A DNA stretch of 64,000 nucleotides, taken from Christensenella sp. UBA3217 (GTDB taxonomy: Bacteria > Bacillota > Clostridia > Christensenellales > CAG-1252). Below are positions 7,561 through 57,220 of the stretch, piece after piece. Numbering within the stretch: position 1 is the stretch's first letter; each line of letters opens with the position of its first letter. Below the pieces are notes generated by a model. It saw only the letters and a program-made list of their open reading frames with translations. It was not told the origin of the DNA and made no database searches. The stretch is from positions 44,294 through 108,293 of the forward strand of contig DEWF01000005.1 of NCBI GenBank assembly GCA_002363545.1, given 5' to 3'. The position numbers and the translations under genes are program-made.

Positions 7561-7646
7561 AAAGTGAGCCGCTTCTCCCGTAAAGGGGGGAGCGGCCATC
7601 AATGGGAAAAATCTTTGGACAAAGGGCAAATTCATGCCGCTCCAAG

Positions 7647-7675
7647 TTGACTTCCCGAAAGAATAGCAATACAAT
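7647..7675 (+). promoter_or_regulatory. Sigma-A type promoter for the 7717 gene
   Basis: TTGACT (7647-7652), 17-nt spacer, TACAAT (7670-7675). An AGGAG RBS lies before the ATG at 7717. Confidence 0.5.
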
Positions 7676-7716
7676 AAGAAGATTCCATTTCAGAATAGCA
7701 TTTTTAGGAGAATACA

Positions 7717-8667: not shown

Positions 8668-9660
8668 ATGAAAGCACGTTATCTGGAAATAGAAAAGCTG
8701 TTCCTGTCCAAATACGCCATGCCTTCATGCGAGACTCGCGGGCGTGAGATCCCCGTGGAGCCTTGTCCTCTTCGCACGGAATTTCAGCGTGACCGTGACC
8801 GCATCATTCACAGCAAGGCCTTCCGCAGGCTCAAACACAAAACGCAGGTGTTTATTTCTCCCGAAGGGGATCACTATCGCACGCGTTTGACTCACACTCT
8901 GGAAGTAACGCAGATCGCGCGGACCATTGCCACCGGTCTTTGTTTGAATGCCGACCTTACCGAGGCCATTGCCTTGGGGCATGACGTAGGGCACACTCCC
9001 TTCGGGCATGCGGGGGAGGAAGTTTTCAGCCGTCTTCTCGGCAAACCCTTCCGTCATAACGAACAGAGCCGCCGCGTGGTGGAAGTGTTGGAAAACGACG
9101 GGAAAGGTTTGAACCTTACTTGGGAAGTACGCGATGGGATAGAAAACCACAAGTTATCTTTGCATCCCGCCACGTTGGAGGGAAAGGTGGTAAGTTATTC
9201 CGACCGCATTGCGTATATCAATCACGATATTGACGACGCGGTGATGGCAGGCGTGATCACCGAGGATATGATCCCCAAGGATTGCGTGGAAGTGCTTGGC
9301 GCCACCAAGAGCGCTCGCGTGAATACCCTTGTGCTGGATATGGTGAATTTCAGTTATGACAAACCGCAAGTGGCGCTTTCTCGTGACGTGCAATATGCGC
9401 TGGATAAACTGTATGCCTTTATGAACGAAAAGGTGTATGCTTATCACTCCGCAAAAGGGGAGGAAACCAAGGCAAAGAAGCTCTTGGAAACCTTGTATTT
9501 CTATTATTTGGAGCATTTTGAAGAGGTGCCGGACCCCTATCACAGAATGTCCGCCGAGTGCGGCAGGGAAAGATCGGTGTGCGACTATCTTGCCAGCATG
9601 ACCGACCGCTATGCCGTGTCCACATATGAAAAACTGTTTATTCCCAATGATTGGAGATAG
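8668..9660 (+). CDS. dgt: dGTP triphosphohydrolase-like HD-domain protein
   Basis: RDRDRIIHSKAFRRLKHKTQVF, HYRTRLTHTLEV, LGHDVGHTPFGHAGE. GGAGGA RBS. Conserved position upstream of dnaG. Confidence 0.9.
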   Translation: MKARYLEIEKLFLSKYAMPSCETRGREIPVEPCPLRTEFQRDRDRIIHSKAFRRLKHKTQVFISPEGDHYRTRLTHTLEVTQIARTIATGLCLNADLTEAIALGHDVGHTPFGHAGEEVFSRLLGKPFRHNEQSRRVVEVLENDGKGLNLTWEVRDGIENHKLSLHPATLEGKVVSYSDRIAYINHDIDDAVMAGVITEDMIPKDCVEVLGATKSARVNTLVLDMVNFSYDKPQVALSRDVQYALDKLYAFMNEKVYAYHSAKGEETKAKKLLETLYFYYLEHFEEVPDPYHRMSAECGRERSVCDYLASMTDRYAVSTYEKLFIPNDWR

Positions 9661-41870: not shown

Positions 41871-43160
41871 ATGACAATAAAGCGAGATTTATATCTTGAC
41901 AAATTAAAGAATCATATGCATAACGGAATGATCAAGATCATTACCGGAATGCGCAGGTGCGGGAAAAGCGTTCTTTTATTCAATTTGTTTTATAACTATC
42001 TGATTGAGTCGGGCGTGAAAGAAGATCATATTATCGCCGTCAATCTCGAAGACGTCGGCAATCATGAGTTTAGAGACCCGCAAAAACTATACGATCATAT
42101 TTGTTCGCAAATCAAGACGAACGAGCAGTATTACGTTTTTCTTGATGAAGTTCAATACGCTATTTCCAAAGGCGATGCGCAAAGCGACGAACCGTTACCG
42201 CTTTATGGCGTTTTGAACGGCTTATTACACAAGATGAACGTGGACGTATACGTGACGGGAAGTAATTCTCGATTCCTTTCATCCGATATAAGAACGGAGT
42301 TTCGAGGTAGGGGAGATGAAATACACGTTCAACCGCTCTCTTTTGCGGAGTTTATGTCGGTTTACGATGGAGACAAATACGACGGCTTGCGCGACTATAT
42401 GGCTTACGGCGGCTTACCGCAGATTGCTTTTATGAAAACGCACGAGCAGAAGGCGGCGTATTTGACAAACCTGTTTGACGAGACTTATATAAAAGATGTC
42501 GTGGACAGGTACGGTATCCGGCGGAATGCGGCGGAGTTTGGCGAATTGGTGGATATCCTTTCGTCTGCCATCGGTTCCCTTAGCAATCCTACGAAACTCA
42601 GCAACACGTTCAAAAGCGTCAAAAACAAAACGGTCGCACAGCTTACGATAGCAAGGTATATTTCGTATCTCGAAGACTCTTTTTTGATCGACGAAGCCGT
42701 TCAATACGACGTAAAAGGAAAGAAGTATATTAACAGTCCGAAAAAATACTACTTTACGGATCTGGGACTTCGTAACGCAAGACTCAATTTCCGTCAACTT
42801 GAAGAAACCCATTCTATGGAAAACGTTATTTATAACGAGTTGAAATTGCGCGGGTATTCCGTAGATGTCGGCGTGATCGAAAAACGCGAAAAGAGCGAAG
42901 ACGGCAAAAGCCTGCGCAAGCGTTACGAAATTGATTTTGTTGCCAATCAAGGCTATAAGCGCTACTATATCCAGTCTGCACTCGCTATGCCAACCTTGGA
43001 AAAGGAGCAGCAAGAACAGCGCTCTTTGATGGGCGTCAACGACTCTTTCAAAAAGATCATCATTGTAGGCGGTTCGACTATGACGCATTATAATGAAAGC
43101 GGTATTTTGATCATGGGAATCCATGATTTCTTGTTGAAGAAAGACAGTTTGGATTTTTAA
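41871..43160 (+). CDS. AAA_14 + DUF4143-type ATPase (COG1373-like)
   Basis: Walker A GMRRCGKS, Walker B YVFLDEVQY, VYVTGSNSRFL, GRGDEIHVQPLSFAEF. Confidence 0.8.
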   Translation: MTIKRDLYLDKLKNHMHNGMIKIITGMRRCGKSVLLFNLFYNYLIESGVKEDHIIAVNLEDVGNHEFRDPQKLYDHICSQIKTNEQYYVFLDEVQYAISKGDAQSDEPLPLYGVLNGLLHKMNVDVYVTGSNSRFLSSDIRTEFRGRGDEIHVQPLSFAEFMSVYDGDKYDGLRDYMAYGGLPQIAFMKTHEQKAAYLTNLFDETYIKDVVDRYGIRRNAAEFGELVDILSSAIGSLSNPTKLSNTFKSVKNKTVAQLTIARYISYLEDSFLIDEAVQYDVKGKKYINSPKKYYFTDLGLRNARLNFRQLEETHSMENVIYNELKLRGYSVDVGVIEKREKSEDGKSLRKRYEIDFVANQGYKRYYIQSALAMPTLEKEQQEQRSLMGVNDSFKKIIIVGGSTMTHYNESGILIMGIHDFLLKKDSLDF

Positions 43161-43191: not shown

Positions 43192-45735
43192 ATGTCAGCT
43201 AAAGAAGCAAAAGCAAGAATAAAAATAAATAAAATGCTGGAATCGGCAGGTTGGCGTTTCTTCGATAGTGAAGAAGGTCCAGCTAACATTCAGGTGGAAG
43301 CCAACGTCAAAATTTCCCAAAAGCAATTTGATGATTTTGGCGAAAACTTTGAGAAAACTAGAAACGGCTTTATCGATTTTCTCCTTCTTGACGATAAGGG
43401 GAAACCGTTCATCGTATTAGAAGCGAAGTCGGAAGAAAAAGATCCTCTTGTCGGGAAAGAACAAGCCCGCGCATATGCTAAAAGCAACTGCGTGAAATAT
43501 GTGATTTTATCAAACGGAAATATCCATTATTTTTGGAATATTTACAAAGGAAATCCGCAGATCATTTTATCTTTTCCTTCATATGAGAGTGTTCAGGAGA
43601 GCAAAGCGTTAAATTCCGATCCTGCCAGGATTTATAATGAGGAAGTAAATTCTGATTATATTTCAGTTGTCAAGGAGCCGCGATATGCGGAAGCGCCGGA
43701 ATATCAGAATCAGGAAACAAGAGCGCAGTTTTTAAGGGATCGCGGACTGAGAATGATGCGCCAATATCAAGTGAATGCGATCAAGGCACTTCAAAAATCC
43801 GTTAAAGAAGGAAATCAACGATTCTTGTTTGAAATGGCGACCGGCACGGGCAAAACCCTAACTGCCGCGGCGGTCATTCGACTATTCCTTCGTAGCGGCA
43901 ACGCAAATAGAGTTTTGTTTTTGGTGGATCGTATCGAGCTTGAAAATCAAGCTAAGAAGAACTTCATCAATTACTTAAAGCCTGATTATCAAACGGTTGT
44001 TTTCAAAGAACACACCGACGATTGGCGTAAGGCGGATATTGTTGTTTCTACAGTGCAAACGCTTGCGTTTAACAATAAGTATAAAAGCGTGTTCAAACCG
44101 ACGGATTTTTCGTTGATAATTGCTGATGAAAGTCACCGTTCCATCAGTGGAAACAGTCGAGCAGTGTTTGAATACTTTATCGGTTACAAACTCGGTTTGA
44201 CGGCGACTCCAAAAGACTATTTGAAAAACGTGGACGCGGATGACCTTTCGTCAAGCGATCCCCGAGCATGGGAGCGCAGGCAACTTTTGGATACATATCG
44301 CACCTTCGGTTGCGAAAGCGGAGAACCGACATTCAGGTATTCGTTGATCGACGGTGTTAACGATCCGGACGGACCGTTCTTGGTCAATCCCACGATTGTG
44401 GATGCGCGTACCGATATAACGACGCAACTTCTTGCAGACGAAGGCTATGCCGTACTGCAGAAAGAAGACGAAGAAGATGAAGATGCGGAAGAAACTTTCT
44501 TTGCTCGCGACTTTGAAAGAAAATTCTTTTCGGACGAAACTAACAAGATGTTTGTAAAAACGTTTATGGATAATGCGCTTCGCGATCCTATTTCCGGAGA
44601 GATCGGCAAGGGCATCGTTTTCTGCGTCAGCAGAAAGCACGCCGCGAAAATTACACAACTTTTGAATGTTTACGCAGACAAAATGTTTCCTGGAAAGTAC
44701 TGTTCTGATTTTGCCATGCAGATAACATCAGACGTACAAAACGCGCAGGAATACACGATCAGTTTCCAAAACAACAATTTGAGCGGAACGAGCGGATTCC
44801 TTGAAGGATATAAATCTTCCAAGACGCGTATTTGCGTGACCGTAGGAATGATGACGACTGGGTATGACTGCGAAGATTTGTTAAATATCGGTTTGTTCCG
44901 TCCGATATTCTCTCCAACTGACTTTATTCAGATCAAAGGGCGCGGTACGCGCACGTTTACCTTCAATTACAAAACGCGGCAGAACGGAGAATGGCATGAG
45001 GAAAAAGTTGCCAAAAGCACTTTCAAACTCTTCGATTTCTTCGGAAATTGTGAGTTTTTTGAAGATAAATTCAATTACGATGAGATTATAAAACTCCCAC
45101 GGATAGCTGCAAAAACCGGAAATGACGGCGGTGAAGGAAGAGCCGTATCTATCGACACGTTTGAAAGCTTTGCGCCCGATCCGCTCAAATCGATCAAGGA
45201 AACGCAAGTCGGTTTGCAAGGGATGAAAATCGATCGAATGTTCTTTGAAAAATTCGAAGAGGTCGTCAAGAAGGACGAAACCGCCAAGGCTTCTTTCGAG
45301 GCGGGCGATTATGCGGGGACGCAACGCTATATCGAAGATAAATATATCGATAAACCGACGGAGTTCTTTACTTGGGAAAAACTCCGTAGGGCATCAGGCG
45401 TCGATCGCAGAGTAACCGTCAGAGAAATATTGGATAAAGTTTTCGGCTTGATTTCAAAGTTCAAAAGTAAGAAAGAACTGGTGGGCGATGAGTTCGACGG
45501 CTATTTGTTGACCTGCGGCGTGCCTGCCGGAGACTTTTATGAGGTCAGACATTTCTTCGAAACCTATTTGACGGATAAAGAAGTCCGTCGAGCGATCGAA
45601 GATAAGAAGTTCCAACTGCTCGGCACCCAAATCCCGAGTTATACGATGGCGGATCTGAGACGTCTCGGCAAAAAGAATATGCAAAGTGTTATCGGATATG
45701 TAAACGATAACGTAAATTTATCTAAATTCATGTGA
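43192..45735 (+). CDS. hsdR: Type I restriction enzyme R subunit-like (COG4096-type): PD-(D/E)xK nuclease + SF2 translocase
   Basis: HSDR_N-like AKARIKINKMLESAGW. Nuclease motif IDFLLLDD..FIVLEAKS. Motif I MATGTGKT, motif II IIADESHRS, motif VI IKGRGTR. Confidence 0.8.
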   Translation: MSAKEAKARIKINKMLESAGWRFFDSEEGPANIQVEANVKISQKQFDDFGENFEKTRNGFIDFLLLDDKGKPFIVLEAKSEEKDPLVGKEQARAYAKSNCVKYVILSNGNIHYFWNIYKGNPQIILSFPSYESVQESKALNSDPARIYNEEVNSDYISVVKEPRYAEAPEYQNQETRAQFLRDRGLRMMRQYQVNAIKALQKSVKEGNQRFLFEMATGTGKTLTAAAVIRLFLRSGNANRVLFLVDRIELENQAKKNFINYLKPDYQTVVFKEHTDDWRKADIVVSTVQTLAFNNKYKSVFKPTDFSLIIADESHRSISGNSRAVFEYFIGYKLGLTATPKDYLKNVDADDLSSSDPRAWERRQLLDTYRTFGCESGEPTFRYSLIDGVNDPDGPFLVNPTIVDARTDITTQLLADEGYAVLQKEDEEDEDAEETFFARDFERKFFSDETNKMFVKTFMDNALRDPISGEIGKGIVFCVSRKHAAKITQLLNVYADKMFPGKYCSDFAMQITSDVQNAQEYTISFQNNNLSGTSGFLEGYKSSKTRICVTVGMMTTGYDCEDLLNIGLFRPIFSPTDFIQIKGRGTRTFTFNYKTRQNGEWHEEKVAKSTFKLFDFFGNCEFFEDKFNYDEIIKLPRIAAKTGNDGGEGRAVSIDTFESFAPDPLKSIKETQVGLQGMKIDRMFFEKFEEVVKKDETAKASFEAGDYAGTQRYIEDKYIDKPTEFFTWEKLRRASGVDRRVTVREILDKVFGLISKFKSKKELVGDEFDGYLLTCGVPAGDFYEVRHFFETYLTDKEVRRAIEDKKFQLLGTQIPSYTMADLRRLGKKNMQSVIGYVNDNVNLSKFM

Positions 45736-45744
45736 GGAAAGTGT

Positions 45745-48219
45745 ATGCTGAACTTTGATGTCAAAAGAAAAATAAATACGTTGCGTGATATATTGGTGGG
45801 CAAAGTCCCCGATCCGAAGGCGCAGGTCGAACAGATCACCATAGCCTTGATCTATAAGTTTATGGACGATATGGATCTTCAAGGGAAAGACTTTGGAGCG
45901 GAAAGAGTGTTTTTCAAAGGTGATTTTGAAAAGTATGCTTTTTCTCAAATCATGCTTGCGGAGCATAGCGCGCAAGAACGTCTAAATCTGTATGCGGAAG
46001 GAATGGACAAAATGACAACCAATCCCGATCTTCCTCAACTTTTCCGCGACATTTTGCGCAATACCTATATCCCCTATCGCGATCCTGAAACGTTGAACCG
46101 CTTTTTGAAAGAAATCAATGAGTTTTCTTATGAAGACAGCGAAGAACTCGGCAATGCGTTTGAGTATTTGCTCTCTATTATGGGCAGTCAAGGCGACGCA
46201 GGCCAATTCCGTACCCCTCGCCATATCATCGATATGATGGTGGAGATTGTTGCGCCGACGAAGAACGAAACCATTCTCGACCCCGCTTGCGGAACCGCAG
46301 GATTCTTAATCAGCGCATACAACTATATCAAGAAGAGCAATCTTGACGAGAAAAACAACTCCAAACTATCGGCGGACGATAAAAACCGTATGACGGAGAA
46401 TTTTGCCGGATACGATATTTCGCCCGATATGGTCAGGCTTTCCCGCGTGAATATGTATTTGCACGGTTTTACCAAGCCAAACATCAGCGAATACGACACG
46501 TTGACCAGTTTGGATAGGTGGGATGATAACTACGATGTGGTTTTGGCAAATCCGCCGTTTATGACGCCGAAGGGCGGCATCGTTCCGCACAATCGTTACC
46601 GCGTTTCCGCCAAGCGAGCGGAAGTGCTGTTCGTGGATTATATTGCCGAGCACTTGAATCCCGCGGGCAGGGCGGCGATCATTGTCCCGGAGGGTATTGT
46701 TTTTCAATCGCAAACGGCATATAAAGAATTACGTAAATTCCTTGTTGAAGACGGTTATTTGTATGGCGTTATTTCTCTCCCTGCCGGTGTGTTCAATCCG
46801 TATAGCGGCGTTAAAACGAGCGTTCTTTTGCTCGACCGTGCTTTGGCGAGAAAAACGGATAGTATCCTTTTTGTAAAACTGAATAACGACGGCTTCGATC
46901 TCGGCGCGCAACGTCGTGAGATCAAGGGAAGCGAGATCCCCGACGTTATCAATATTTTCAAAGATTATCAAAAGGGAATTGAAGTTGACGGCAGACAAAA
47001 CGTAGTTCTTGCAAAGAAAAGTGATATAACTAAGCAGGACTATATTCTTGTTGGGGATAGATATCAACTTGCAGATGTTTATCAATCGAAATGGCCTACT
47101 GTAAAACTCAGCGAACTCAGTGAAATAATAACAAAAGGGACAACGCCAACGACACTAGGTTTTAATTATACAGATGGCGGAATTCGATTTATAAAAATAG
47201 AGAATATCTCTTTAAATAATGAATTGCTGAATAACGAATATGCGTTCATATCTGAAGAATGCAATAAAGCATTATATAGGAGTGTATTGCGAGAAGATGA
47301 CATCCTTTTTTCTATTGCAGGAGCATTAGGACGATGTGCAATAGTCAAAAAAGAATACTTGCCTGCCAATACCAACCAAGCCCTCGCAATAATAAGGCTA
47401 AAGGATAAAAGAGTGGTAAAATATGTTAAGATGATTTTATCGTCTTCCGCAATTAAAGATCAGATTACTTCCCTAAAAACTGGTGTCGCACAGTATAATT
47501 TGTCGTTAAAACAAATCGGAGATATTACAATACCTCTTCCGCCTTTATCCGTGCAGGAAGAAATTGTCGCCGAGATAGAATCGTATCAAAAAATTATCGA
47601 CGGTGCCCGTCAAGTTGTAGAAAACTATAAGCCGACTATCAAGATTGATCCGACGTGGAAGATCGTTCCGCTTGGTCAAGTATGCGTTACATCGTCTGGT
47701 GGTACTCCCAAAAGCACAAATCGTGAGTATTATGAAAATGGCACTATCAATTGGTTGAAAAGTGGTGAGGTTGCTAATGGGTACATTTATTCTACTGAAC
47801 AAAAGATAACAGAGAAAGCGTTAGAGGAATCTTCTGCAAAAGTTTTTCCCGCAGAAACAGTTGTAATAGCGATGTATGGCGCAACAGCGGGGCAAGTTGG
47901 CATCTTAAAAATTGCCAGTGCCACAAACCAAGCGGTTTGTGGAATACTGCCGAATAAAGTTTTTGAATCCGAATTTCTATATTTATACATGTTATCAAAA
48001 CACGATTATTTTATCAAACAGTCAACAGGTGGAGCTCAACCAAACATTTCTCAAATGCTGATAAGAAAAACCGGAGTGCCGTTAGTTGATTTGGAAGAAC
48101 AAAAGAAAGTAGTCGCACGAATTCATCTCGAAATGAATATTGTTGAGCAAAATAAAAACTTAATTAAAATCTTTGAGCAAAAGATCAAAGAAAAAATCTC
48201 TGAGGTTTGGGGAGAGTAA
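45745..48219 (+). CDS. hsdM: Fused type I methyltransferase-specificity polypeptide (HsdM N-half, two-TRD HsdS C-half)
   Basis: GQFRTPRHI, motif I LDPACGTAGFL, motif IV VLANPPF. Two TRD starts follow (WPTVKLSELSEIITKGTTP and WKIVPLGQVCVTSSGGTPK), each followed by a conserved helical spacer. Confidence 0.8.
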   Translation: MLNFDVKRKINTLRDILVGKVPDPKAQVEQITIALIYKFMDDMDLQGKDFGAERVFFKGDFEKYAFSQIMLAEHSAQERLNLYAEGMDKMTTNPDLPQLFRDILRNTYIPYRDPETLNRFLKEINEFSYEDSEELGNAFEYLLSIMGSQGDAGQFRTPRHIIDMMVEIVAPTKNETILDPACGTAGFLISAYNYIKKSNLDEKNNSKLSADDKNRMTENFAGYDISPDMVRLSRVNMYLHGFTKPNISEYDTLTSLDRWDDNYDVVLANPPFMTPKGGIVPHNRYRVSAKRAEVLFVDYIAEHLNPAGRAAIIVPEGIVFQSQTAYKELRKFLVEDGYLYGVISLPAGVFNPYSGVKTSVLLLDRALARKTDSILFVKLNNDGFDLGAQRREIKGSEIPDVINIFKDYQKGIEVDGRQNVVLAKKSDITKQDYILVGDRYQLADVYQSKWPTVKLSELSEIITKGTTPTTLGFNYTDGGIRFIKIENISLNNELLNNEYAFISEECNKALYRSVLREDDILFSIAGALGRCAIVKKEYLPANTNQALAIIRLKDKRVVKYVKMILSSSAIKDQITSLKTGVAQYNLSLKQIGDITIPLPPLSVQEEIVAEIESYQKIIDGARQVVENYKPTIKIDPTWKIVPLGQVCVTSSGGTPKSTNREYYENGTINWLKSGEVANGYIYSTEQKITEKALEESSAKVFPAETVVIAMYGATAGQVGILKIASATNQAVCGILPNKVFESEFLYLYMLSKHDYFIKQSTGGAQPNISQMLIRKTGVPLVDLEEQKKVVARIHLEMNIVEQNKNLIKIFEQKIKEKISEVWGE

Positions 48220-48221
48220 GT

Positions 48222-49226
48222 ATGAATAGCGCACGAATAAAAGAATGCACAGAATTGTCATCGGAAATCCTAAAAAACTTTGAGTTGTCTGAAGTTCCTG
48301 TTAGCAATATTATTTTGAAAAGCTTGCGTCTTTGTAGGTTACTTGGCGATGAAGACGGAATTTTGCTTTTTACCTATGAGTCTTCCGGCTATCCCAGTGG
48401 AGCAAATGGTATGTCTGCGGATTCTTGGAGAATAGCCAAAATGGCAGGGAGGAGATATTTTTCAAAAGAAAAGGATAAAAATGGCAAAGAGAAAAATGTT
48501 GAGTACGCAAAAACTCAATTAATAGCAGAACTTGAAGAATTTATTGAATCGCAAAAAATAAGTTTGTCGTCTTCTAATGATCCAAACGTATCTATTTCAT
48601 CTGCAAATCCAAGTCAATTTGTTCATACCCCGCAAGGGAACGCTAGTGTAAGAAGGTCTATCGTATTATCTATTACAGAATCGCAAAAATGGCTTCAAAA
48701 GATTAAAGGATGTTTATATAATTACATCTTGCAAATATACAATAAACTTTCTTATGGAAATATTATAGAAGATACATTCACAAAATCGCGATTGATGACA
48801 AACGATAAATTGGCAACTATGTGCCCTCAAGCAATTAATAAATTTGTTTCAGTATATGAAAACATGGATTCTGATAATTCTGAGGACTGGGCAAATGCAG
48901 TGCATTCTTGCCGCCGTATTTTGGTTGATTTGGCAGACTCACTATATCCGCCACAAGACGAGCCTATCGTTGTTGAAGGGAAAAAGATAAAAATTGGGAA
49001 AGATCAATATATTAATCGACTAATGCAGTTTATATCTGAGAAATCTTCAAGTAAAACATATAAGGATATTGTAGGCTCGGATTTGTCATTCATTGGCAAT
49101 AGACTTGATGCGATAAATGATGCAGTTTGTAAAGGGACACATTCGAATTTAACGAAAGATGAAGCGTCGAGATATATCCTGCATACTTATTTGTTAATTA
49201 GCGATATTATCGCATTGATAGAGTAA
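48222..49226 (+). CDS. AbiTii-like N-terminal domain protein (334 aa)
   Basis: VSNIILKSLRLCRLLGDEDGILLFTYESSGYP resembles the AbiTii N-domain pattern (LRK..lA..L......W...ELnGY). C-terminal helical module ends KGTHSNLTKDEASRYILHTYLLISDI. The ATG lies 2 nt after the hsdMS stop. Confidence 0.5.
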   Translation: MNSARIKECTELSSEILKNFELSEVPVSNIILKSLRLCRLLGDEDGILLFTYESSGYPSGANGMSADSWRIAKMAGRRYFSKEKDKNGKEKNVEYAKTQLIAELEEFIESQKISLSSSNDPNVSISSANPSQFVHTPQGNASVRRSIVLSITESQKWLQKIKGCLYNYILQIYNKLSYGNIIEDTFTKSRLMTNDKLATMCPQAINKFVSVYENMDSDNSEDWANAVHSCRRILVDLADSLYPPQDEPIVVEGKKIKIGKDQYINRLMQFISEKSSSKTYKDIVGSDLSFIGNRLDAINDAVCKGTHSNLTKDEASRYILHTYLLISDIIALIE

Positions 49227-49238
49227 AGAGGCATACTT

Positions 49239-50372
49239 ATGAAAAGTGATGGACATACCACTATAAATGCGAAAGCGGAAGAGCCTCTGGATTTTTCGGT
49301 TGCACTCGATAAAATTCTTGAGTACTTACCTCAAGAGTATTCGGATAAAACAGAAAAGCAATATATTGATGCTCTTATCCTTGCGACTCGTACTAGTTAT
49401 GAAAATGGGCTATATCAATTTGCATATATCCAGTACCATATGCTTTTTATGACTGCCGTGTATTATGCTCTTTTGCAAATTTCTTTCGTGCATAAAAAAG
49501 AACTTGAAAAAGGGCTATATTATTTATTAAAAGATAGGTATTCGGAGTTTTGGAAGGAAAGTAACACAAAAAAAGGGGAACTCTATTTCGGCAGTTTTGC
49601 CATAATAAACGAAAGCGACGTTTTTATGTTGCTTCGAGTGGTAGGATTAGAGAACGATTTTTTGGGTGAATTGAAGGATTTGGTTAAGCAACGAAATAAT
49701 TATGCTCACGCAAATGGGCAACTCTTGCTGACATCCGATGATCTATTTCTTGATGCCATAAGTAACTATAATGAAAAAGCAGAAAAAGTAATAAATTTTT
49801 TAAAAACAGATTTAATTGCTTTTTACAAGAAAAGTATAGGTGAAAAAGACTTCTACGATCCTGAAATACGTGCTTGTTCAGATGCGGACGAACAAATGGA
49901 ACAAGAGTTTATTAAAAAGTATTCTCTTTCTCAAACAGAATTAAACTGGTTGCGAAAAATTCAATTGTCTGAGTTTGATGATATGAATGGTGCAGAAGAG
50001 ATAAAGACACTTCATTGTGCATTGATTCATTATTATATCGAATTGACACGAGACGATTATATACCGATTGCAGATACTTATATTCAAAATAAATACCATG
50101 AAAATGCGGTGGGTTTTATAGAAAATGAGATGGGTATTAGCGCCTATGAATGCGGCAAATATGGGGCTGAATTCCCGTTGTATGAATGCCCTGAATGTGG
50201 AGAAGAGCAACTCGTTTTTGACCAAGAAAACGGTAAATATCATTGTTTTGCATGTGATGAAGATTTTACTACTGAAGATTTAGCGCGTTGTGACCGTTGT
50301 GGGTGTTTGATGAAACGAGATGACGATTGGCAGCTTTGTGGAAATTGCACAGAAGAGATAAAGAGAGATTAA
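49239..50372 (+). CDS. HEPN-like protein with C-terminal double zinc ribbon
   Basis: LVKQRNNYAHANG fits the HEPN R-x4-H (RN..AH) RNase motif. C-terminus has CPECGEE..HCFACDED and CDRCGC..LCGNC. Confidence 0.55.
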   Translation: MKSDGHTTINAKAEEPLDFSVALDKILEYLPQEYSDKTEKQYIDALILATRTSYENGLYQFAYIQYHMLFMTAVYYALLQISFVHKKELEKGLYYLLKDRYSEFWKESNTKKGELYFGSFAIINESDVFMLLRVVGLENDFLGELKDLVKQRNNYAHANGQLLLTSDDLFLDAISNYNEKAEKVINFLKTDLIAFYKKSIGEKDFYDPEIRACSDADEQMEQEFIKKYSLSQTELNWLRKIQLSEFDDMNGAEEIKTLHCALIHYYIELTRDDYIPIADTYIQNKYHENAVGFIENEMGISAYECGKYGAEFPLYECPECGEEQLVFDQENGKYHCFACDEDFTTEDLARCDRCGCLMKRDDDWQLCGNCTEEIKRD

Positions 50373-50386
50373 GAGTGGATATACAA

Positions 50387-53122
50387 ATGAACGAGTTTGA
50401 TCAAAACATTATTACCGTAAGCGACAATATCTGCAAAAATATTGCATCCATCCCTGATGGAGAGCGTGGTTTTGTATCGCAAAACATATTAAGCAATTTG
50501 CGAAATCTTGTTGAAGCTGTAGACCAGCGCATTTTTAGTGATATAGAACCTATTGAATTAAATTGCTATAACGATATCGAAAAAGCGATAAAATATGTTG
50601 CATCTCGTGGGAATTTGAGATTTTTAAGCAAGTTTCATGATTTTTTGCAGGCTTCAGTTTCGCATTATACACCGGATGAGGATAGTTCTATACGGTTGAT
50701 GTTGAAGTATTATGAATGGTTGCTCAAGATTCGTGATTACTGCAAGACGGTTTTCTCTTTAGATATTTTGGGCAACTTAGAGGACTACCCATTACAACAA
50801 GACGAATCGTTAAAAGAGTATTATGACAAAATTGCTTGTAAGTTGGAAACCGCAAGATACTATAATAGCCAGCCTAATAACAGATTTTATATTGAAAAAA
50901 ACAAGCCGTTTTTTGTTGACGGGAAAACATATTATCAATTAACGGTAACACCTGCCGATGATTTTTCGAGCAAATTTGATAGGATAATTGTTTTTTCTGA
51001 TCGTGATATCCCTTCATATTACGCCATCAAACTTGATTTTATAGACAGTTCTATCGACATTATCGATAGAGTAATGCCTATAAAAATCGTTAATAATTAT
51101 ACCGTTGCAATTCGCCCTGTTGAATTTGAAGATATAGCGTCGATTTTAGGCGTAAATAAAGTCAATGTCGGCACAAAAGAAAACAGGTTTATGATGGATT
51201 ATTTGACCAAGACTGGTGCGAATCTTACTGAGATTATCAATTATGAACAAAAATATTATGATCAACTTAAAAATGAACTAATTAGCAGATGCGAGTCAAA
51301 TAATTTTTTCATAATGCTTGATAAATGCAGAGCTTTATCGAAAAATAAAAGTTCAGGGCACAATATAATTCGTTATTTGCTATTGCGCTTGCGACACGGT
51401 GTTATGAAGGCACAAATTCAATCAACTGAAAACAATTGGTTATCTAATTTGTGCTTATTAAATGAGAGTATTCCTTTTGATAAAATGCCTTTTGACGCAT
51501 CTCTTCATAATCACAATCCATCTCTATTTGATATTTTTTCAAGCATAAATATTAAAGGGCACGAAGAGGAACTGCTTTCAAGGAAAGTGCGCACCAATAC
51601 CGAACAAAAAGTTCAATTATTTACACCAATAGAAGATGTAAAAAAATATGGTGATGTAGAGGAATTGGCAAATAGGTTTAACTCACGTCTTATCCCCAAG
51701 CACAAACCCGTTAGAAGTTTGATAATCGAACACGGACAAATCCATATAAAAGGTTATGTGGATGACACTATTTGGATAATTAATAATCTTATTAGCAGAC
51801 AAGAGAGCGGATTAGCCGGGTACAAAAATTCGATGATATCTTGGGTAAATACAAATCCTGCGGTAGATTCGGAAGAAAAAAAGAAGATTTTACCTAATAT
51901 TTTTGATAGTTCCAATTTAGCGTTGATTTATGGCGCAGCAGGAACCGGCAAAACAACACTAATTAAACATTTGGCAGATTACTTTTCAAATGAAAGTAAA
52001 CTGTTCTTGGCGAATACAAATCCAGCGAAGGAACATCTTCGCAGAGAAATAAAAACAAAAAATAGCGAATTCAGTACCATAGCAGGAAGCAAACAGTATT
52101 TGAAATACTCTTATGATGTAGTTTTTATTGACGAATGTAGTACTGTGGACAATTTATCAATGAAAAAACTGTTACAGCAATTATCATGTAAATTATTAGT
52201 GCTTGTAGGAGATGTGTTTCAGATACAATCCATATCATTTGGTAATTGGTTTGGTCTTGCTCGTTATTTCTTGCCTAAAAGCATAATTTTTGAGCTGACT
52301 ACACCTTACAGGGGGCAACAAAATAATAATCTTATTGGTTTATGGAATCGCGTACGAGAACTTGATCCGCAAATTGCAGAATATATCTATAGAAACAAAT
52401 ATTCTGCAACTTTAGATGATGGGACTATTTTTGCAAACGATTTAACTGATAGAATTATTTTATGCTTGAATTACGACGGCTTATATGGAATTAATAATAT
52501 AAATCGATTTTTACAAAACGATAATCCTAATCCTCCAATCACATGGGACTCATGGATATACAAAGTCAATGATCCGGTTTTATTTAATGAACATAATCGC
52601 TTTTATCCCACTCTTTACAATAATTTAAAAGGTTGGATTCGTGATATCAAAAAGGATGATTATTCTATAACTTTTACTGTGGAAATAGATATGCCGATCA
52701 ATGGATTCGGAGCGTCTGAAGCAGGTTTTGAGTTGTTGGAGTGTGATGTGTCTGGGCATTCAATTATTAGGTTTACCGTGGGCAAATATGTTGATGACGA
52801 TAGTAGAGAAAGAAAACAAGAACAAGTGGTTCCTTTTCAAGTTGCTTATGCAGTATCAATACATAAAGCACAAGGACTTGAATACGATTCCGTGAAAATC
52901 GTTGTAACAAATGAGATAGAAGAGTTAATCTCTCACAATATTTTTTATACGGCAATTACTCGCGCAAAGAGAAAACTGAAAATATATTGGCAACCTGAAA
53001 CGCAACAGAAAATATTGTCTACCATAGAACCAATTTCCAACAAAAAAGATGCCTATATTATTGAAGCGAAATATGGGTTGAAGATATTGAATATGGTAAA
53101 ACAAGTAAAAAGGACGATTTAA
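50387..53122 (+). CDS. RecD/Dda-like SF1 helicase with ~530-aa uncharacterised N-terminal region
   Basis: Walker A YGAAGTGKTT, Walker B VVFIDECS, LVLVGDVFQ, AVSIHKAQGLEYDSV, FYTAITRAKRKLKIY. The ATG at 50387 follows the upstream stop by 14 nt. Confidence 0.8.
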   Translation: MNEFDQNIITVSDNICKNIASIPDGERGFVSQNILSNLRNLVEAVDQRIFSDIEPIELNCYNDIEKAIKYVASRGNLRFLSKFHDFLQASVSHYTPDEDSSIRLMLKYYEWLLKIRDYCKTVFSLDILGNLEDYPLQQDESLKEYYDKIACKLETARYYNSQPNNRFYIEKNKPFFVDGKTYYQLTVTPADDFSSKFDRIIVFSDRDIPSYYAIKLDFIDSSIDIIDRVMPIKIVNNYTVAIRPVEFEDIASILGVNKVNVGTKENRFMMDYLTKTGANLTEIINYEQKYYDQLKNELISRCESNNFFIMLDKCRALSKNKSSGHNIIRYLLLRLRHGVMKAQIQSTENNWLSNLCLLNESIPFDKMPFDASLHNHNPSLFDIFSSINIKGHEEELLSRKVRTNTEQKVQLFTPIEDVKKYGDVEELANRFNSRLIPKHKPVRSLIIEHGQIHIKGYVDDTIWIINNLISRQESGLAGYKNSMISWVNTNPAVDSEEKKKILPNIFDSSNLALIYGAAGTGKTTLIKHLADYFSNESKLFLANTNPAKEHLRREIKTKNSEFSTIAGSKQYLKYSYDVVFIDECSTVDNLSMKKLLQQLSCKLLVLVGDVFQIQSISFGNWFGLARYFLPKSIIFELTTPYRGQQNNNLIGLWNRVRELDPQIAEYIYRNKYSATLDDGTIFANDLTDRIILCLNYDGLYGINNINRFLQNDNPNPPITWDSWIYKVNDPVLFNEHNRFYPTLYNNLKGWIRDIKKDDYSITFTVEIDMPINGFGASEAGFELLECDVSGHSIIRFTVGKYVDDDSRERKQEQVVPFQVAYAVSIHKAQGLEYDSVKIVVTNEIEELISHNIFYTAITRAKRKLKIYWQPETQQKILSTIEPISNKKDAYIIEAKYGLKILNMVKQVKRTI

Positions 53123-54168
53123 TGACAGCGCAAATGAATAAAACACAAAAATATTATATTGCATATATGGATATCTTGGGATATAAGGAGTATTTGAAAA
53201 ATAATCCTGACAAAGCTCAAGAGTATTTGAATACAATTCTTGATGCTGTTGAAAGAGCAAAAATAAGTGTGTCAAATTTTGAGAGTAAAACTATGCCCAT
53301 GTATCAAATGGATGGCGGACTTCGGTTAAAGATTTTTTCGGACAATATTTTGCTTTGTATGCCGGTTGGTAATGGTAAAGATGAAATTCGCCGTGCCATT
53401 GTTTTCTTGATTGCAGTGGCTTCTATTCAAAGAGGAATGGTATTGCAACATGGCTTGATTACACGTGGCGGTATTATTTTTGGTGAACTTTTTATAAATG
53501 AAGATATAGTTTTTGGGCAAGGACTAATCGACGCGGTTTCTTTGGAGGCTAAAGCAGAATATCCGTGTATAATAGTATCTGATGAGTTGCCTAAAAAGTT
53601 ACATAGCCTGTTGAGTGATGTAACAGAACAATACAACAAAATAAGAACCCTTATCCAAAATCAAGAACAACACGTCGATTTTAGTTCTGAAGAAAAGAAG
53701 TATTTGGATGATAATTTGGTAAATGTTGCCAAACAGGTTTATTATTATCGCTCTTTGCAAGAATTGATGTTACATTTTGATAAAGAACCAATTTTTCTTA
53801 ATTATTTATTTGACTTATCGTTTACCAATCTTTTTGGAATTGTGTTTGAAAACTATGTTGCTCAAATTGCAAAAAATGAACCCAAAAAGTTTAAAGATTT
53901 GATCGGGACAAACGAAGATTATGCCTCTATATTATTAGCACATAAAGACATTGTAATAAACAAAGCGGTGACGTATTGCCATTATTGTGATATTGATAAG
54001 TCGAATGCTTTGTTAATAGCGGCAAGGGAGAAAGTAATTCGCAAATACATTTGGATGCTTAGGTTCCATATACATATGTGTGAGCGACTAAATTTTAAGC
54101 AAGGCATGTTTGCGTTTCGATTTGGTTGCGATCTAGATGTGTTGCGTCAAATTGTTGAAATTATATAG
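53122..54168 (+). CDS. Nucleotide-cyclase/GGDEF-like palm-domain protein with unknown helical C-domain
   Basis: Ordered motifs YIAYMDILGY, LKIFSDNILL, TRGGIIFGE and FGQGLIDAVSLEAKA resemble class III cyclase metal-Asp and R-x-G..G..N.A.R.E blocks. The start overlaps the helicase stop (TAATG). Confidence 0.5.
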   Translation: MTAQMNKTQKYYIAYMDILGYKEYLKNNPDKAQEYLNTILDAVERAKISVSNFESKTMPMYQMDGGLRLKIFSDNILLCMPVGNGKDEIRRAIVFLIAVASIQRGMVLQHGLITRGGIIFGELFINEDIVFGQGLIDAVSLEAKAEYPCIIVSDELPKKLHSLLSDVTEQYNKIRTLIQNQEQHVDFSSEEKKYLDDNLVNVAKQVYYYRSLQELMLHFDKEPIFLNYLFDLSFTNLFGIVFENYVAQIAKNEPKKFKDLIGTNEDYASILLAHKDIVINKAVTYCHYCDIDKSNALLIAAREKVIRKYIWMLRFHIHMCERLNFKQGMFAFRFGCDLDVLRQIVEII

Positions 54169-54174
54169 TATTAA

Positions 54175-54191
54175 AATCGGGTTTCCCGATT
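54175..54191 (+). terminator. Weak hairpin terminator ending the array
   Basis: AATCGGG-ttt-CCCGATT, followed only by a short T-poor tail. Confidence 0.35.
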
Positions 54192-54340
54192 GTTCGGCGA
54201 GCCGAAGGCGCCGCCATACGAAAAAGCGGATTTTGGCTATTTCCTTATCCTGCTATAGAAAAAAGCCGGATAGCCAAGGAAATAGCTAAAAAATTTTTCA
54301 AAAAAGTGGTAAGGTGTTTGCTACAACGAACACCTTAACC

Positions 54341-54369
54341 TTTACAAAGGCATTTGAAAGTGATATAAT
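54341..54369 (+). promoter_or_regulatory. Promoter of a non-coding transcript
   Basis: TTTACA (54341-54346), 17 nt, TATAAT (54364-54369). No ORF follows. Confidence 0.5.
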
Positions 54370-54373
54370 ATAG

Positions 54374-54601
54374 CTACAAACTGAATACGGGTGACAGGTA
54401 AAATACCATTGTTTGCCGCGAACGTTCGTTAAGCGATTATACTTGGCAGAAGCCGTATTGACTTAAACCGCATAAAAACCCAACAGCGGGCGGAGAGAAC
54501 AGTACGAAACCGCGAACCACGAGACTTCGGGCGAACAGATAGACCTTATTTTTGCGTTGCAGAAACGCGCGTAAGGTTTTGTCTGTTCGCCCTTTGTTTT
54601 T
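54374..54601 (+). ncRNA. Candidate ~230-nt structured RNA of unknown function
   Basis: Bounded by the promoter above and a long terminator hairpin. Internal pairings include AATACGG/CCGTATT and the palindrome CGAACGTTCG. No coding potential in any + frame. Confidence 0.4.
54529..54601 (+). terminator. Long-stem intrinsic terminator
   Basis: GGGCGAACAGA..CCTTA..GCG / CGC..TAAGG..TCTGTTCGCCC, followed by TTTGTTTTT. Confidence 0.7.
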
Positions 54602-54785
54602 AACGGGCATTCGGTTTGAATACAACCACAAGGAGGAATGTGTATGAATGCAAGAGATCGACCACACATCTGACAACCACGAGCGGAAGAAAGTCATTGA
54701 AAGTATTGGGAATCCGTTCCAAAATGGAAGCAGGTAAAGGATTTTCCCAAAATCAATGATTTTCGTTAATCCGACTCGTGGACAA

Positions 54786-54808
54786 GTGGGAAACCCACCT
54801 TTCTTTTT
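54786..54808 (+). terminator. Short hairpin + T-run
   Basis: GTGGG-aaa-CCCAC followed by CTTTCTTTTT. Confidence 0.35.
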
Positions 54809-54844
54809 CGGCAAGTAATTGCCACAAGATGACAGGCCCATATC

Positions 54845-54939
54845 TCTCCGCGCGGAGAAATATTCGTCGTATATATACGAGAAAGAGCTTGACATGCCCT
54901 CGTTAATGGAGTAGAATATAAACAGTCGTATCAATACGA
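54845..54939 (+). promoter_or_regulatory. Promoter of the recombinase module flanked by paired operators
   Basis: TTGACA (54889-54894), 17 nt, TAGAAT (54912-54917). 14-bp palindromes TCGTATATATACGA (54867-54880) and TCGTATCAATACGA (54926-54939), plus TCTCCGCGCGGAGA (54845-54858). Confidence 0.6.
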
Positions 54940-54969
54940 TTAGGATATTTACCTAAGGAGATGAAAAAG

Positions 54970-55266
54970 ATGACGAAACCGAGAGCGGAAAAAGATAAGA
55001 GATATGAGGATAGACACAAGGAAGAACGGAAAGCCAAGTGTATGGTTTGGGGAACGAGCGTTGATCGCAAAGAAGCGGAAAAGATAAACGCATTTCTCGA
55101 AGAGTATGGTTACACGAAAGTCCAATTGATCCGGGCGGGCTATAAAGCATTGATGGACGAAGCCGCTGAACATGATTTAGGATTAGCGAAGATAATGGAT
55201 AAGTACGATGACTTTTTCAGCGGAGAACTTGAAAAGTTTGAGAAACAGAAAAAGGAAGACAAATAA
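54970..55266 (+). CDS. Small basic/acidic protein of the recombinase module (possible regulator or directionality factor)
   Basis: 98 aa. AAGGAG lies 9 nt upstream of the ATG at 54970. Lys/Arg-rich N-terminus and a helical C-terminus. No confident family. Confidence 0.5.
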   Translation: MTKPRAEKDKRYEDRHKEERKAKCMVWGTSVDRKEAEKINAFLEEYGYTKVQLIRAGYKALMDEAAEHDLGLAKIMDKYDDFFSGELEKFEKQKKEDK

Positions 55267-55610
55267 CCTCTTCGGGAGCGAAGAACAGACACTTGACCTA
55301 CGTAGGGAAAAGGATTACGCGAAAGGAGCATTGGCGTAATGGACTCCCTTTAATTTCTTGTGAGAGTGAGGGCAAAAAAATACACCGGATACCCTCACCG
55401 TCCAAAAGGAATGAATAATAAAACACCAAGTAAAGAACGTTGTCACCGTGGATTTAACAAGCGGTGCAAGCAGTAAAACCCCTTGCGACCTGTCGCAAGA
55501 ACAAATCAACAAAAGCGCAAACATATTGGCAAACGTATTGATAGACTTTGTTAAGAACGGCGGAAGCCTTAAAGATCTTACGCCACAACACGTATTCGGG
55601 AGGAAAGGCA

Positions 55611-57152
55611 ATGAATAGAGCGGTCATCTATGCAAGATTCAGTTCTCACAGTCAAACGGAACAGTCCATCGAAGGACAACTTCGCGAGTGCTATGAATAT
55701 GCCAAACGGCAAAACATCGTGATCGTGGGCGAATATATAGACAGAGCCTTGACGGGAACGATGGACAAGCGTCCCAACTTCTTAAAGATGATCGAAGACA
55801 GCAAGAAAAAGACCTTCGACTTCGTTCTCGTCTATCAGTTGGATCGCTTCGCTCGTAACCGATATGACAGCGCAAACTACAAAGCAAAACTCAAAAAGAA
55901 CGGCGTGCGTGTTCTTTCCGCCAAGGAGAATATCAGCAACGACGCAAGCGGTATCCTGATTGAGGGCGTACTGGAAAGTATGGCGGAGTACTACTCCGCC
56001 GAGCTTTCCCAAAAGGTAAAACGCGGTATTAGAGAAAGCTTGACTAAAGGATATTTCATCGGTGGGTACGGACTGTTCGGCTATGACGTCATGGACAAAA
56101 GATGGGTCGTAAACTCTTTTGAAGCGGACGTCGTTCGGGACGTGTTCAATCGTTACAAGAACGGTGAAAAGTTGAACGACATAATCAATAGACTCAATCG
56201 TGATGGTATTAAAACGAAAGCGGGTTCGGCTTTCAATATGAACAGTGTTGCCCGCATGATCCGCAACGAGAAGTATATCGGTCTTGTCCGTTCTAACGGC
56301 AATGTCTATACCAACGTTGTTCCCGCCATCGTGGACGAAAGTCTATTCCGAGAGTGTAACGAAATGATGGACGAACACAAGCACAAACAGCGTGAGTGTA
56401 AAGCGGAGAAGCCGTATATATTGAGCGGTAAACTGTTCTGCGGCTACTGTGGCAGCATGATGACGGCGGAAGCCGGCACAAGCAAAACGGGGAAAGTTCA
56501 CCACTATTACAAGTGCTTCAATCGCAAGAAGAATCCGTCCGCCTGTGGCAAGAAAAGTTACAAGCAAAAGGACTTAGAAGATCTCGTTTTCGACACGACG
56601 GTGGACTATATCTTAAAGCCGAAGGTCATCGACCAAATCGCGCAGATCGTGGTGGAACGCTTCAATGCGGAGATAACCAAATCTGCGAACATTGCCAATC
56701 TCGAAAACGAGCTAAAATCTAAAGAAAAAGCGATAAACGGCTTGCTCACCGCAATGGAACAAGGCGTCGTCACGAAAACGACCAAAGACAGAATGCTCGC
56801 ATTGGAAGCGCAAAAGGAAGAGTTGGAAAGCAAGATCGCATTGGAAAAGGCAAGGCAAATCGAGCCGTTATCTTACGAAACGGTACGCGCTTTCCTGACC
56901 TATTTCGCACGGAAAAAGTACGAAAGCGACGAAGTCAAAAACGAATTCTTTAATTCGTTCATCAATCGTGTTATTCTGTACGACGATAGAGTGCTTATCT
57001 TCTACAACACCGATCCGAACAGTCCGACGACCATCGACACAGCCGAAAACAAAACCATTTGCGATCAATTCAACCAAAACAACGCAAAAGAAAACTCGCT
57101 TGAACCTTCGGGGTTCAAACGAGTTTCACTTGGCGGAGAGATAGGGATTTGA
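55611..57152 (+). CDS. Large serine recombinase (integrase)
   Basis: Resolvase domain AVIYARFSSHSQ (catalytic Ser), VLVYQLDRFARN. Recombinase domain. Zinc ribbon CGYCGSMM...HHYYKC. Coiled-coil C-terminus. GGGAGGAAAGG RBS before 55611. Confidence 0.9.
   Translation: MNRAVIYARFSSHSQTEQSIEGQLRECYEYAKRQNIVIVGEYIDRALTGTMDKRPNFLKMIEDSKKKTFDFVLVYQLDRFARNRYDSANYKAKLKKNGVRVLSAKENISNDASGILIEGVLESMAEYYSAELSQKVKRGIRESLTKGYFIGGYGLFGYDVMDKRWVVNSFEADVVRDVFNRYKNGEKLNDIINRLNRDGIKTKAGSAFNMNSVARMIRNEKYIGLVRSNGNVYTNVVPAIVDESLFRECNEMMDEHKHKQRECKAEKPYILSGKLFCGYCGSMMTAEAGTSKTGKVHHYYKCFNRKKNPSACGKKSYKQKDLEDLVFDTTVDYILKPKVIDQIAQIVVERFNAEITKSANIANLENELKSKEKAINGLLTAMEQGVVTKTTKDRMLALEAQKEELESKIALEKARQIEPLSYETVRAFLTYFARKKYESDEVKNEFFNSFINRVILYDDRVLIFYNTDPNSPTTIDTAENKTICDQFNQNNAKENSLEPSGFKRVSLGGEIGI
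57131..57144. repeat. Right island junction: 14-bp direct repeat (last 14 nt of tRNA-Ser)
   Basis: TGGCGGAGAGATAG is identical to 35920-35933. Confidence 0.8.
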
Positions 57153-57220
57153 ACCCTAGGTACCGGTGAAGGTACGCATGATTTCGAATCATGTGCATTC
57201 GACCTCTCTGCCATCTCTCC
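57131..57220 (-). tRNA. tRNA-Ser (anticodon CGA), CCA encoded
   Basis: Reverse complement GGAGAGATGGCAGAGAGGTCGAATGCACATGATTCGAAATCATGCGTACCTTCACCGGTACCTAGGGTTCAAATCCCTATCTCTCCGCCA. It has a 7-bp acceptor stem, anticodon stem CATGA/TCATG with loop TTCGAAA, a long variable arm GTACC/GGTAC, and a T-arm TAGGG-TTCAAAT-CCCTA. Confidence 0.92.

Follow-up and report, generated by a model that had tools for sequence, protein, structure and literature searches.

Do two genes whose reading frames overlap at a stop and a start codon work together, or do they simply lie side by side? This question is raised by a locus of Christensenella sp. UBA3217 (contig DEWF01000005.1), of which we analysed a 64,000-nucleotide (nt) stretch, here called the window, whose positions serve as coordinates throughout. 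On its plus strand, the gene for a 911-amino-acid (aa) superfamily 1B (SF1B) helicase (50387-53122) is followed by a 348-aa open reading frame (ORF), here called ORF2 (53122-54168), with a TAATG stop/start overlap at 53120-53124. A preliminary description, made from the letters of the DNA, had read this arrangement as an undescribed defence pair of a helicase and a cyclase-like protein. The reading frames, coordinates and motifs that it quoted for both proteins were all found in the translations and the overlap is present in the sequence; the pair itself fared differently. Our analysis makes it very probable that the helicase and ORF2 are independent single-gene modules and not a dedicated two-component system, the helicase belonging to an already catalogued family of defence candidates and ORF2 to an unnamed family with a predicted class III cyclase-type palm fold.

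The genomic evidence for this was collected from both sides of the junction. On the helicase side, none of 60 helicase-family loci held a match to hidden Markov models (HMMs) of the ORF2 family, and these models recovered all of the positive controls (6/6), including the most distant plasmid and phage members. The loci included four contexts whose helicases are between 83 and 49% identical to that of the window, together with 54 viral or prophage contigs encoding the family-specific N-terminal region. On the ORF2 side, 83 loci were sampled (80 from species-representative genomes and three from metagenomes), and tblastn searches, for which each half of the helicase served as a query, gave a match in one of them only, locus L004, which is a 95%-identical relative in a rumen Clostridia metagenome-assembled genome (MAG RGIG8188). 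Even there, what adjoins ORF2 is a remnant: the helicase gene (6727-8001 of that locus) encodes 424 aa in frame, with aa 1-159 joined to approximately 641-911, and has lost Walker A, Walker B and motif III, the ORF2 downstream of it being intact. The two genes are therefore not conserved as neighbours in other genomes, adjacency having been seen in 0/60 helicase loci and, as this remnant, in 1/83 ORF2 loci.

The closest helicase locus is the converse case. The 83%-identical helicase lies in an HsdR-HsdM-...-TIR-helicase-small ORF-serine recombinase array with no ORF2, and further relatives that likewise have no ORF2 lie among housekeeping genes (68% identity), after HsdM-HsdS-HsdR (64%) and in a prophage-like region (49%). 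The window and locus L085, one of the loci carrying the 83% relative, are collinear over 50387-53114 (77.6% identity) and again over 54173-57157 (L085 4479-7440; 89.4%), and between these blocks positions 53115-54172, which correspond to ORF2, are replaced in L085 by approximately 31 bp. A hairpin, AATCGGG-TTT-CCCGATT, stands just 3' of the ORF2 stop codon in the window (54175-54191, plus strand) and marks the downstream edge of this indel; L085 carries this hairpin too, separated from the stop codon of its helicase by a spacer of approximately 24 nt and no ORF2. With flanks that are collinear and nothing but ORF2 missing between them, the difference is an indel of one gene: ORF2 is a cassette whose gain or loss took place at the stop codon of the helicase. 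The loci with the 83% relative (L084-L086) also carry a TIR-domain protein of 146 or 325 aa as the next gene upstream of the helicase, a place taken in the window by an AbiTii gene and a HEPN-like gene, and this difference suggests that relatives exchange the cargo that lies between their hsd genes and the helicase.

The overlapping codons were considered as a sign of a functional pair and rejected as such, since the whole array is tightly packed and relatives of ORF2 overlap unrelated genes. Along the same-strand array that runs from HsdR to ORF2, successive gaps measure 9, -13, 12, 14 and -1 nt, and tight packing is a property of this entire array which does not single out the helicase/ORF2 junction. 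Elsewhere, ORF2 relatives share stop/start overlaps with HsdM (L001, L005 and L049) or HsdR (L053), and a 45%-identical relative overlaps in this way with an 835-aa HsdM, so that overlapping whatever gene lies upstream is a habit of the ORF2 family and is not specific to the helicase. An AGGA element resembling a Shine-Dalgarno sequence precedes the ORF2 ATG by approximately 9-12 nt, and a scan for promoters and terminators found no clear internal example of either between the genes. We read ORF2 as a cassette that brings a Shine-Dalgarno-like sequence but no promoter and relies on whichever operon lies upstream, and behaviour of this kind accounts for the TAATG overlap.

The helicase reading frame runs from an ATG at 50387 to the stop codon at 53120-53122; a longer, TTG-started ORF from 50327 exists, and homologues begin at MNEFD. 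Its translation contains GAAGTGKTT, VVFIDECS, LVLVGDVFQ, SIHKAQGLEYDSV and FYTAITRAKRKL, and Pfam matches (Viral_helicase1, AAA_30, AAA_19 and UvrD_C_2) are restricted to aa 499-868, placing the motor core at approximately aa 499-880 and leaving aa 1-495 as the N-region. Both the RecD/Dda-type SF1 core and the large N-terminal region without a known domain, as first described, are confirmed by these matches and motifs, Pfam being silent before aa 499. The PDB sequence matches were to RecD, RecD2 and Pif1, and the NCBIfam models for RecD2 (TIGR01448) and RecD (TIGR01447) gave 112.3 bits against a cut-off of 500 and 105.6 against 310, respectively. By sequence, then, the protein is a member of the RecD/RecD2 superfamily, yet neither RecD nor RecD2. 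It shares Walker A and B, motif III and motifs V/VI with the SF1B helicases RecD2, Dda and Pif1, and differs from them by the family-specific N-region of approximately 495 aa, which has no significant structural match. More than 2000 homologues, each of approximately 900 aa, make up its family.

It is the database of defence candidates which removes the helicase from the undescribed. PADLOC candidate PDC-S53 (PDLC05035) matches it with 1148 bits (E=0), residues 1-899 aligning to profile positions 1-897 of 900, and we see no sequence-level difference that would set it apart from the members of that family, which lie in or beside type I restriction-modification (RM) operons in the window, L084 and L088. 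The PDCs are 145 untested single- or multi-gene candidates which were singled out by 'guilt-by-embedding', from their place within BREX, DISARM or type I RM loci (Payne et al. 2024, bioRxiv 10.1101/2024.01.29.577857); PDC-S53 was not named in the papers or supplements covered by our literature search. PDC-S53 is a single-gene candidate, and the surroundings of its relatives agree with this listing, as they occur alone or beside type I RM and have no conserved partner in the 60 loci. Membership nevertheless gives the helicase a name without explaining its mechanism.

Modelled on its own, the N-region (495 aa) was predicted with a predicted local distance difference test score (pLDDT) of 85.7 and a predicted template modelling score (pTM) of 0.79, and comprises a helical bundle, a beta domain at approximately aa 165-240 and a mixed alpha/beta part. 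A Foldseek search of this model against the PDB returned no match at E<=1e-3, and no nuclease, nucleotide-receptor, cyclic-nucleotide (cNMP)-binding or effector fold was found in it. Weak matches that recurred (E>=0.04) were to SSB, Rim1, POT1, AB5 B-subunits, the MCM N-terminus and Dna2, which makes an OB-like nucleic-acid-binding module plausible as a tentative reading of the model. We read the helicase as an ATP-driven, probably 5'-3', DNA motor whose N-region most likely recognises a nucleic-acid substrate. Helicases of the PDC-S53 type recur alone, be it beside type I RM genes, in prophages or among housekeeping genes.

ORF2 proved the less familiar of the two proteins. Its translation contains YMDILGY, KIFSDNILL, TRGGIIFGE and FGQGLIDAVSLE, and its sequence matched nothing significantly in Pfam, NCBIfam, PADLOC or the PDB; PHROGs returned two families of unknown function, including phrog_23933 (E=5e-17). 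A collection of 5.8 billion proteins yielded 122 homologues of approximately 345-385 aa, none with a Pfam domain, and 64 of these form the alignment of close relatives used here. The family reaches much further, with 8650 cluster representatives at E<=1e-3 and 3399 at E<=1e-10 in an exhaustive profile search. It was not described in the literature that we searched on anti-phage proteins with cyclase homology domains, on stand-alone defence cyclases and on cyclases encoded within hsd loci.

The fold is more informative than the sequence. An AlphaFold2 model built on the 64-sequence alignment (pLDDT 89.2, pTM 0.89) has the N-terminal element order beta-alpha-alpha-beta-beta-alpha-beta-alpha-beta, and each of the top 50 Foldseek matches in the PDB, all at E<=1e-3, is to a cyclase domain of class III (adenylyl, guanylyl or uridylyl), with E between 9e-6 and 1e-3 over 150-185 columns and TM-scores of 0.5-0.65 on the target. 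They include CyaC, CyaB, Rv1900c, Ma1120, soluble guanylate cyclase and the Pycsar uridylate cyclase 8jsz. In agreement with this, PF00211 is the commonest sub-threshold Pfam family among the relatives (5/64, best E=0.0031). In the model, the ORF2 N-domain (approximately aa 9-165) has a class III cyclase-type palm fold, as the preliminary description had supposed for its first ~170 aa. The palms of GGDEF, Cas10 and reverse-transcriptase-like proteins share a two-Asp core and were considered as well; they were set aside, the top 50/50 structural matches being class III cyclases. A search against viral structures gave solely giant-virus cyclase and response-regulator matches, with no phage function among them. 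The C-terminal half has no structural match at E<=1e-3 by Foldseek. The middle of the protein is helical and variable, and the last ~60 residues (K308, W311, H316 and C320) are kept even in shorter relatives, which suggests that the core of the family has two parts. Ten longer relatives carry no Pfam-detectable fused effector (TIR, transmembrane (TM), SAVED or CARF), and one of them has TPR repeats.

Conservation across the family points to an active site that is at once familiar and unusual. Y12, A14, Y15, D17, L19, G20, Y21, F72, S73, D74, N75 and Q103 are invariant across the 64 relatives, as are R115, G116, G132, G134, V139, E142, P148, Y228, K308, W311 and H316; H274, C320 and C336 are nearly so, and G121 and R149 are also invariant or near-invariant in the N-domain family. 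A profile alignment to the cyclase 3mr7 pairs lDiLGY with ADMAGY, RGgitkG with RIGINIG and vfGkgLidavelE with iFGDAVNVAARLE, and puts D17 at the Asp of ADMAGY; the underlying PDB profile matches are non-significant (E=1.6 for the full-length alignment and 0.9 for the N-domain) and served as a residue map only. We infer that D74 is the second metal Asp from its position in the predicted beta2-beta3 hairpin. Both aspartates, which had been put forward as lying on two metal-binding strands, are kept in 35/36 diverse N-domains as well as in the 64 close relatives. The sole exception, P0299, has lost both together (FTILGC and FSNH), which fits a shared metal site; such a pattern is as expected of a co-dependent metal site or of an inactivated paralogue. 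The presence of a palm fold and of a metal site, either of whose absence would have counted against the original proposal, thus finds support in the model and the alignments.

At the positions of the class III transition-state Asn and Arg, in contrast, the 3mr7 alignment places I136 and S140, and in the 36 diverse N-domains these two columns show no conserved N or R. ORF2 therefore shares with the class III cyclases (PF00211) its modelled fold, the Asp positions on beta1 and beta2-beta3 and the R-G...G and F-G...A..L-E framework motifs, and differs from them in remaining below Pfam significance, in having no alpha4 Asn/Arg pair (G-x-x-V-N-x-A-x-R-x-E) and in its own invariants, S73, N75, Q103 and P148-R149, together with the C-terminal K/W/H/C element. 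We take it to be a cyclase-fold palm protein which keeps a predicted two-metal site with non-canonical catalytic residues. Its chemistry may be that of an atypical cyclase, some other nucleotidyl transfer or the sensing of nucleoside triphosphates.

If the partner of ORF2 is not the helicase, then the genes which do recur beside its family deserve attention. Clustering the neighbours at the 83 ORF2 loci revealed a recurrent HsdM (HsdM_N and N6_Mtase) upstream and a HsdS (Methylase_S) immediately downstream, as well as an HsdR cluster nearby. Counting was done with HMMs built from these neighbour clusters and run on every ORF at the 77 loci where an ORF2-family gene was called. Type I RM components lie within +-8 kb of that gene at 35/77 loci, a same-strand Hsd gene lies within two genes of it at 23/77, and approximately 15 loci have it nested as hsdM-X-hsdS(-hsdR) with gaps of 1-15 nt. 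For a random stretch of 17 kb, the chance of including a type I RM system should be about 1%, a figure which is an estimate and not a matched background. The association of the helicase family with RM genes is looser (6-9/60 loci, plus the window). The remaining ORF2-family loci are solitary insertions in variable spots: Ruminococcus relatives lie after rplM-rpsI and next to an integrase-like gene (read by eye, not domain-searched), and another insertion follows a HipA kinase. Distant relatives are found on plasmids of the Bacillus cereus group and of Acinetobacter and beside the integrase/attP of P2-like Burkholderia phages, and the public annotation of these plasmid and phage relatives is always 'hypothetical protein'.

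No conserved effector gene adjoins the ORF2 family at the 83 loci, and no PADLOC match to Pycsar or CBASS was found in the window, where the downstream neighbour of ORF2 is an opposite-strand 165-aa ORF with no domain. The earlier remark that no cNMP-binding, TIR, SAVED or TM effector lies near the two genes therefore holds. Two side observations concern particular branches of the family. The member in Burkholderia phage phiX216 (GP47; L090 3845-4789) stands just after the integrase and attP and next to the hypothetical GP46, a position typical of a moron or a defence-hotspot site. Relatives of approximately 245 aa, mostly from Gastranaerophilales/Melainabacteria MAGs, have a conserved opposite-strand ORF of 72-84 aa upstream, which is gene -1 at 8/10 loci (L057, L058, L060, L062, L068, L072, L074 and L077), 63-102 nt away, and gene -2 at L069 and L070; its product, in which Pfam detects no domain, could be a small regulatory or partner protein.

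The palm fold in the model, the conservation of residues, the independence from the helicase and the frequent hsdM-X-hsdS embedding of the ORF2 family can be read from the data, and what ORF2 does has to be pieced together from them. We narrowly favour the view that it is a real defence gene. It would then be a metal-dependent nucleotide-processing enzyme (a nucleotidyltransferase or an atypical cyclase), probably acting as a homodimer, as cyclase-homology domains do, and it may provide an abortive-infection or guard function linked to RM. The analogy here is with PrrC, which is embedded in a type IC RM locus and activated when the restriction enzyme is inhibited (PMC12707154); by the same logic as PrrC in EcoprrI, ORF2 might be switched on by an inhibited neighbouring restriction complex or by nucleotide pools altered during infection. 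What is shared with the anticodon nucleases PrrC and RloC, which are embedded in type I RM loci and of which PrrC is the model case for such embedding and for the sensing of RM inhibition, is a genomic logic, with one accessory gene nested between hsd genes in many ORF2-family members. The protein itself is unrelated and has no ABC-ATPase or anticodon-nuclease domain, so the guard function is drawn by analogy only, and in the window itself the hsd genes do not enclose ORF2, which is found four genes downstream of them. A role for ORF2 as a nucleotide enzyme guarding restriction is accordingly something we propose tentatively. Extended to the whole family, which has thousands of clusters at 50% identity, the same idea would see stand-alone anti-phage proteins built on a rewired class III palm (metal site kept, Asn/Arg lost, new S-D-N, Q and P-R invariants and the C-terminal K/W/H/C element added) and guarding restriction by nucleotide-based means from inside the type I RM operons in which they recur; this is a conjecture we would sooner doubt than assert. 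As for the locus, the two modules would have become neighbours at the 3' end of an array headed by type I RM genes, and this array was probably acquired horizontally and integrated at tRNA-Ser as a mobile island of low guanine-plus-cytosine (GC) content.

Several points weigh against this interpretation. Sharing an operon and overlapping at stop and start, the helicase and ORF2 might interact functionally in this lineage alone, and the helicase deletion in L004 could be an artefact of MAG assembly. With the Asn/Arg pair absent, the ORF2 domain might be a non-catalytic nucleotide sensor, and its residue alignment to the cyclases, which falls short of significance as a sequence match (E=0.9), depends on the agreement of the folds. 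Moreover, more than half of the ORF2-family loci have no RM genes within 8 kb, and for this reason the idea of an RM guard cannot cover the whole family.

Other explanations of ORF2 have to be set against these same data. It may be a true cyclase in the manner of Pycsar or CBASS, making a nucleotide that switches on either its own C-terminal domain or an effector from another locus. The class III fold would suit this, with a Pycsar uridylate cyclase among the matches, as would the conserved pair of metal aspartates, and the conserved C-terminal element could be a receptor or effector in cis. In Pycsar, however, the cyclase adjoins a cNMP-binding effector (TIR or TM), and ORF2 has no such partner gene: PADLOC found neither PycC nor any other signalling system, the recurrent neighbours of the family are HsdM and HsdS, and the longer relatives offer no fused alternative. 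The replacement of the transition-state residues by I136 and S140, in columns that the family does not conserve, speaks against canonical cyclase chemistry, and the CD-NTases of CBASS are Pol-beta-like enzymes acting with a Cap effector, whereas the modelled fold of ORF2 is a class III palm. We therefore think this explanation unlikely. Panoptes mCpol, reported to be a minimal Cas10-type palm cyclase acting with a membrane effector (PMC12657230), is likewise a small stand-alone palm enzyme in defence; the top 50 matches of ORF2 include no Cas10 or GGDEF entry and no two-TM effector adjoins it, although no direct comparison of the two was made.

It is also improbable, in our judgement, that ORF2 has no immune function at all and is a regulatory or housekeeping cyclase-like protein, or selfish mobile cargo (for addiction or anti-defence, for example) hitch-hiking in variable regions. 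The loci away from RM genes, some of them beside rplM-rpsI or HipA, would be at home in such a reading, as would the lack of any defence-database match and the 'hypothetical protein' annotations. The repeated nesting in type I RM operons is, however, hard to explain otherwise than by defence, and carriage on plasmids and at the integrase-proximal site of P2-like prophages, the low-GC island and the patchy, indel-like distribution between close relatives all point the same way; even the Ruminococcus sites next to rpsI carry an integrase-like protein, to go by its sequence as read by eye and not domain-searched. Least probable is the dedicated two-gene system, in which one protein (the helicase, say) would sense phage nucleic acid and the other (the palm protein) would produce a nucleotide signal, or their roles would be exchanged, the N-domain of the helicase being the receptor or effector: it draws on the TAATG coupling within a single operon, on the place of both genes in a defence island, on the palm fold and metal aspartates of ORF2 and on an N-region without an assigned function, and it founders on adjacency that is missing in 60/60 helicase loci and 82/83 ORF2 loci, on a closest helicase locus that misses exactly ORF2, on a closest ORF2 locus whose helicase has no motor, on ORF2 relatives that are equally coupled to HsdM or HsdR, on a helicase N-region in which Foldseek detected no cNMP-binding or effector fold and on the PADLOC listing of the helicase as a single-gene unit.

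With helicase and ORF2 taken as independent modules, what the locus offers is different from what was first expected of it. A new helicase-cyclase two-gene system is unsupported and the helicase was already catalogued as a candidate, of which the window is a clean natural example. The ORF2 family is new to the copies of Pfam, NCBIfam and PADLOC used here, has at least 3399 cluster representatives (E<=1e-10) and is found embedded in type I RM operons, a setting which has already yielded validated defence systems. If ORF2 is an immune enzyme, it would add to bacterial immunity a module derived from class III cyclases that works without an effector. Should the guard function be true as well, it would represent a second, chemically different model after PrrC for the backing up of restriction systems, and RM guardians would gain an enzymatic class with no kinship to PrrC or PARIS.

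The rest of the island agrees with its description as a tRNA-borne defence island in which the two genes follow RM and Abi-like genes, all of the expected components having been located on the plus strand unless stated otherwise. At its head lies an AAA_14/DUF4143 ATPase (41871-43160), itself PADLOC candidate PDC-S01 (359 bits). It is followed by an 847-aa HsdR (43192-45735; Pfam ResIII/HSDR_N, PADLOC REase_I) and an 824-aa HsdM-HsdS fusion (45745-48219) with N6_Mtase and two Methylase_S stretches (PADLOC MTase_I and Specificity_I); a one-protein HsdM-HsdS adjoining an HsdR of this size is an unusually compact type I arrangement. Then come AbiTii (48207-49226; Pfam 3.8e-11, PADLOC 3.7e-16) and, 12 nt downstream, a 377-aa protein (49239-50372) with a HEPN_RiboL-PSP match under the Pfam cut-off (2.6e-4) and a C-terminal Zn-ribbon, which may together form a two-gene Abi/HEPN module. 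Beyond the helicase and ORF2, a large serine recombinase (55548-57152; Pfam Resolvase, Recombinase and Zn_ribbon_recom) and a minus-strand tRNA-Ser(CGA) (57131-57220; ARAGORN) are the mobile-element edge of the island, the recombinase being laid out alike in L085, and GC content is 33-37% across 47-54 kb against 45-53% in the flanks.

This edge shows some further features. The recombinase ORF ends at 57152 and so overlaps the 3' end of tRNA-Ser(CGA) on the other strand, which suggests integration into the tRNA gene, and a strong terminator-like hairpin lies on the minus strand at 57127-57091. L004 (compared over 9132-9390) does not have the segment 54258-57086 of the window that carries the serine recombinase; there, ORF2 is followed within approximately 250 bp by sequence matching window positions 57086-57151 at the tRNA-Ser edge, so the recombinase module appears to be variable among close relatives. 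Finally, very large ORFs were seen in both loci, one of 2513 aa at 19-7560 (plus strand) in the window and one of 1936 aa at 911-6721 (plus strand) in L004, where it lies upstream of the helicase remnant.

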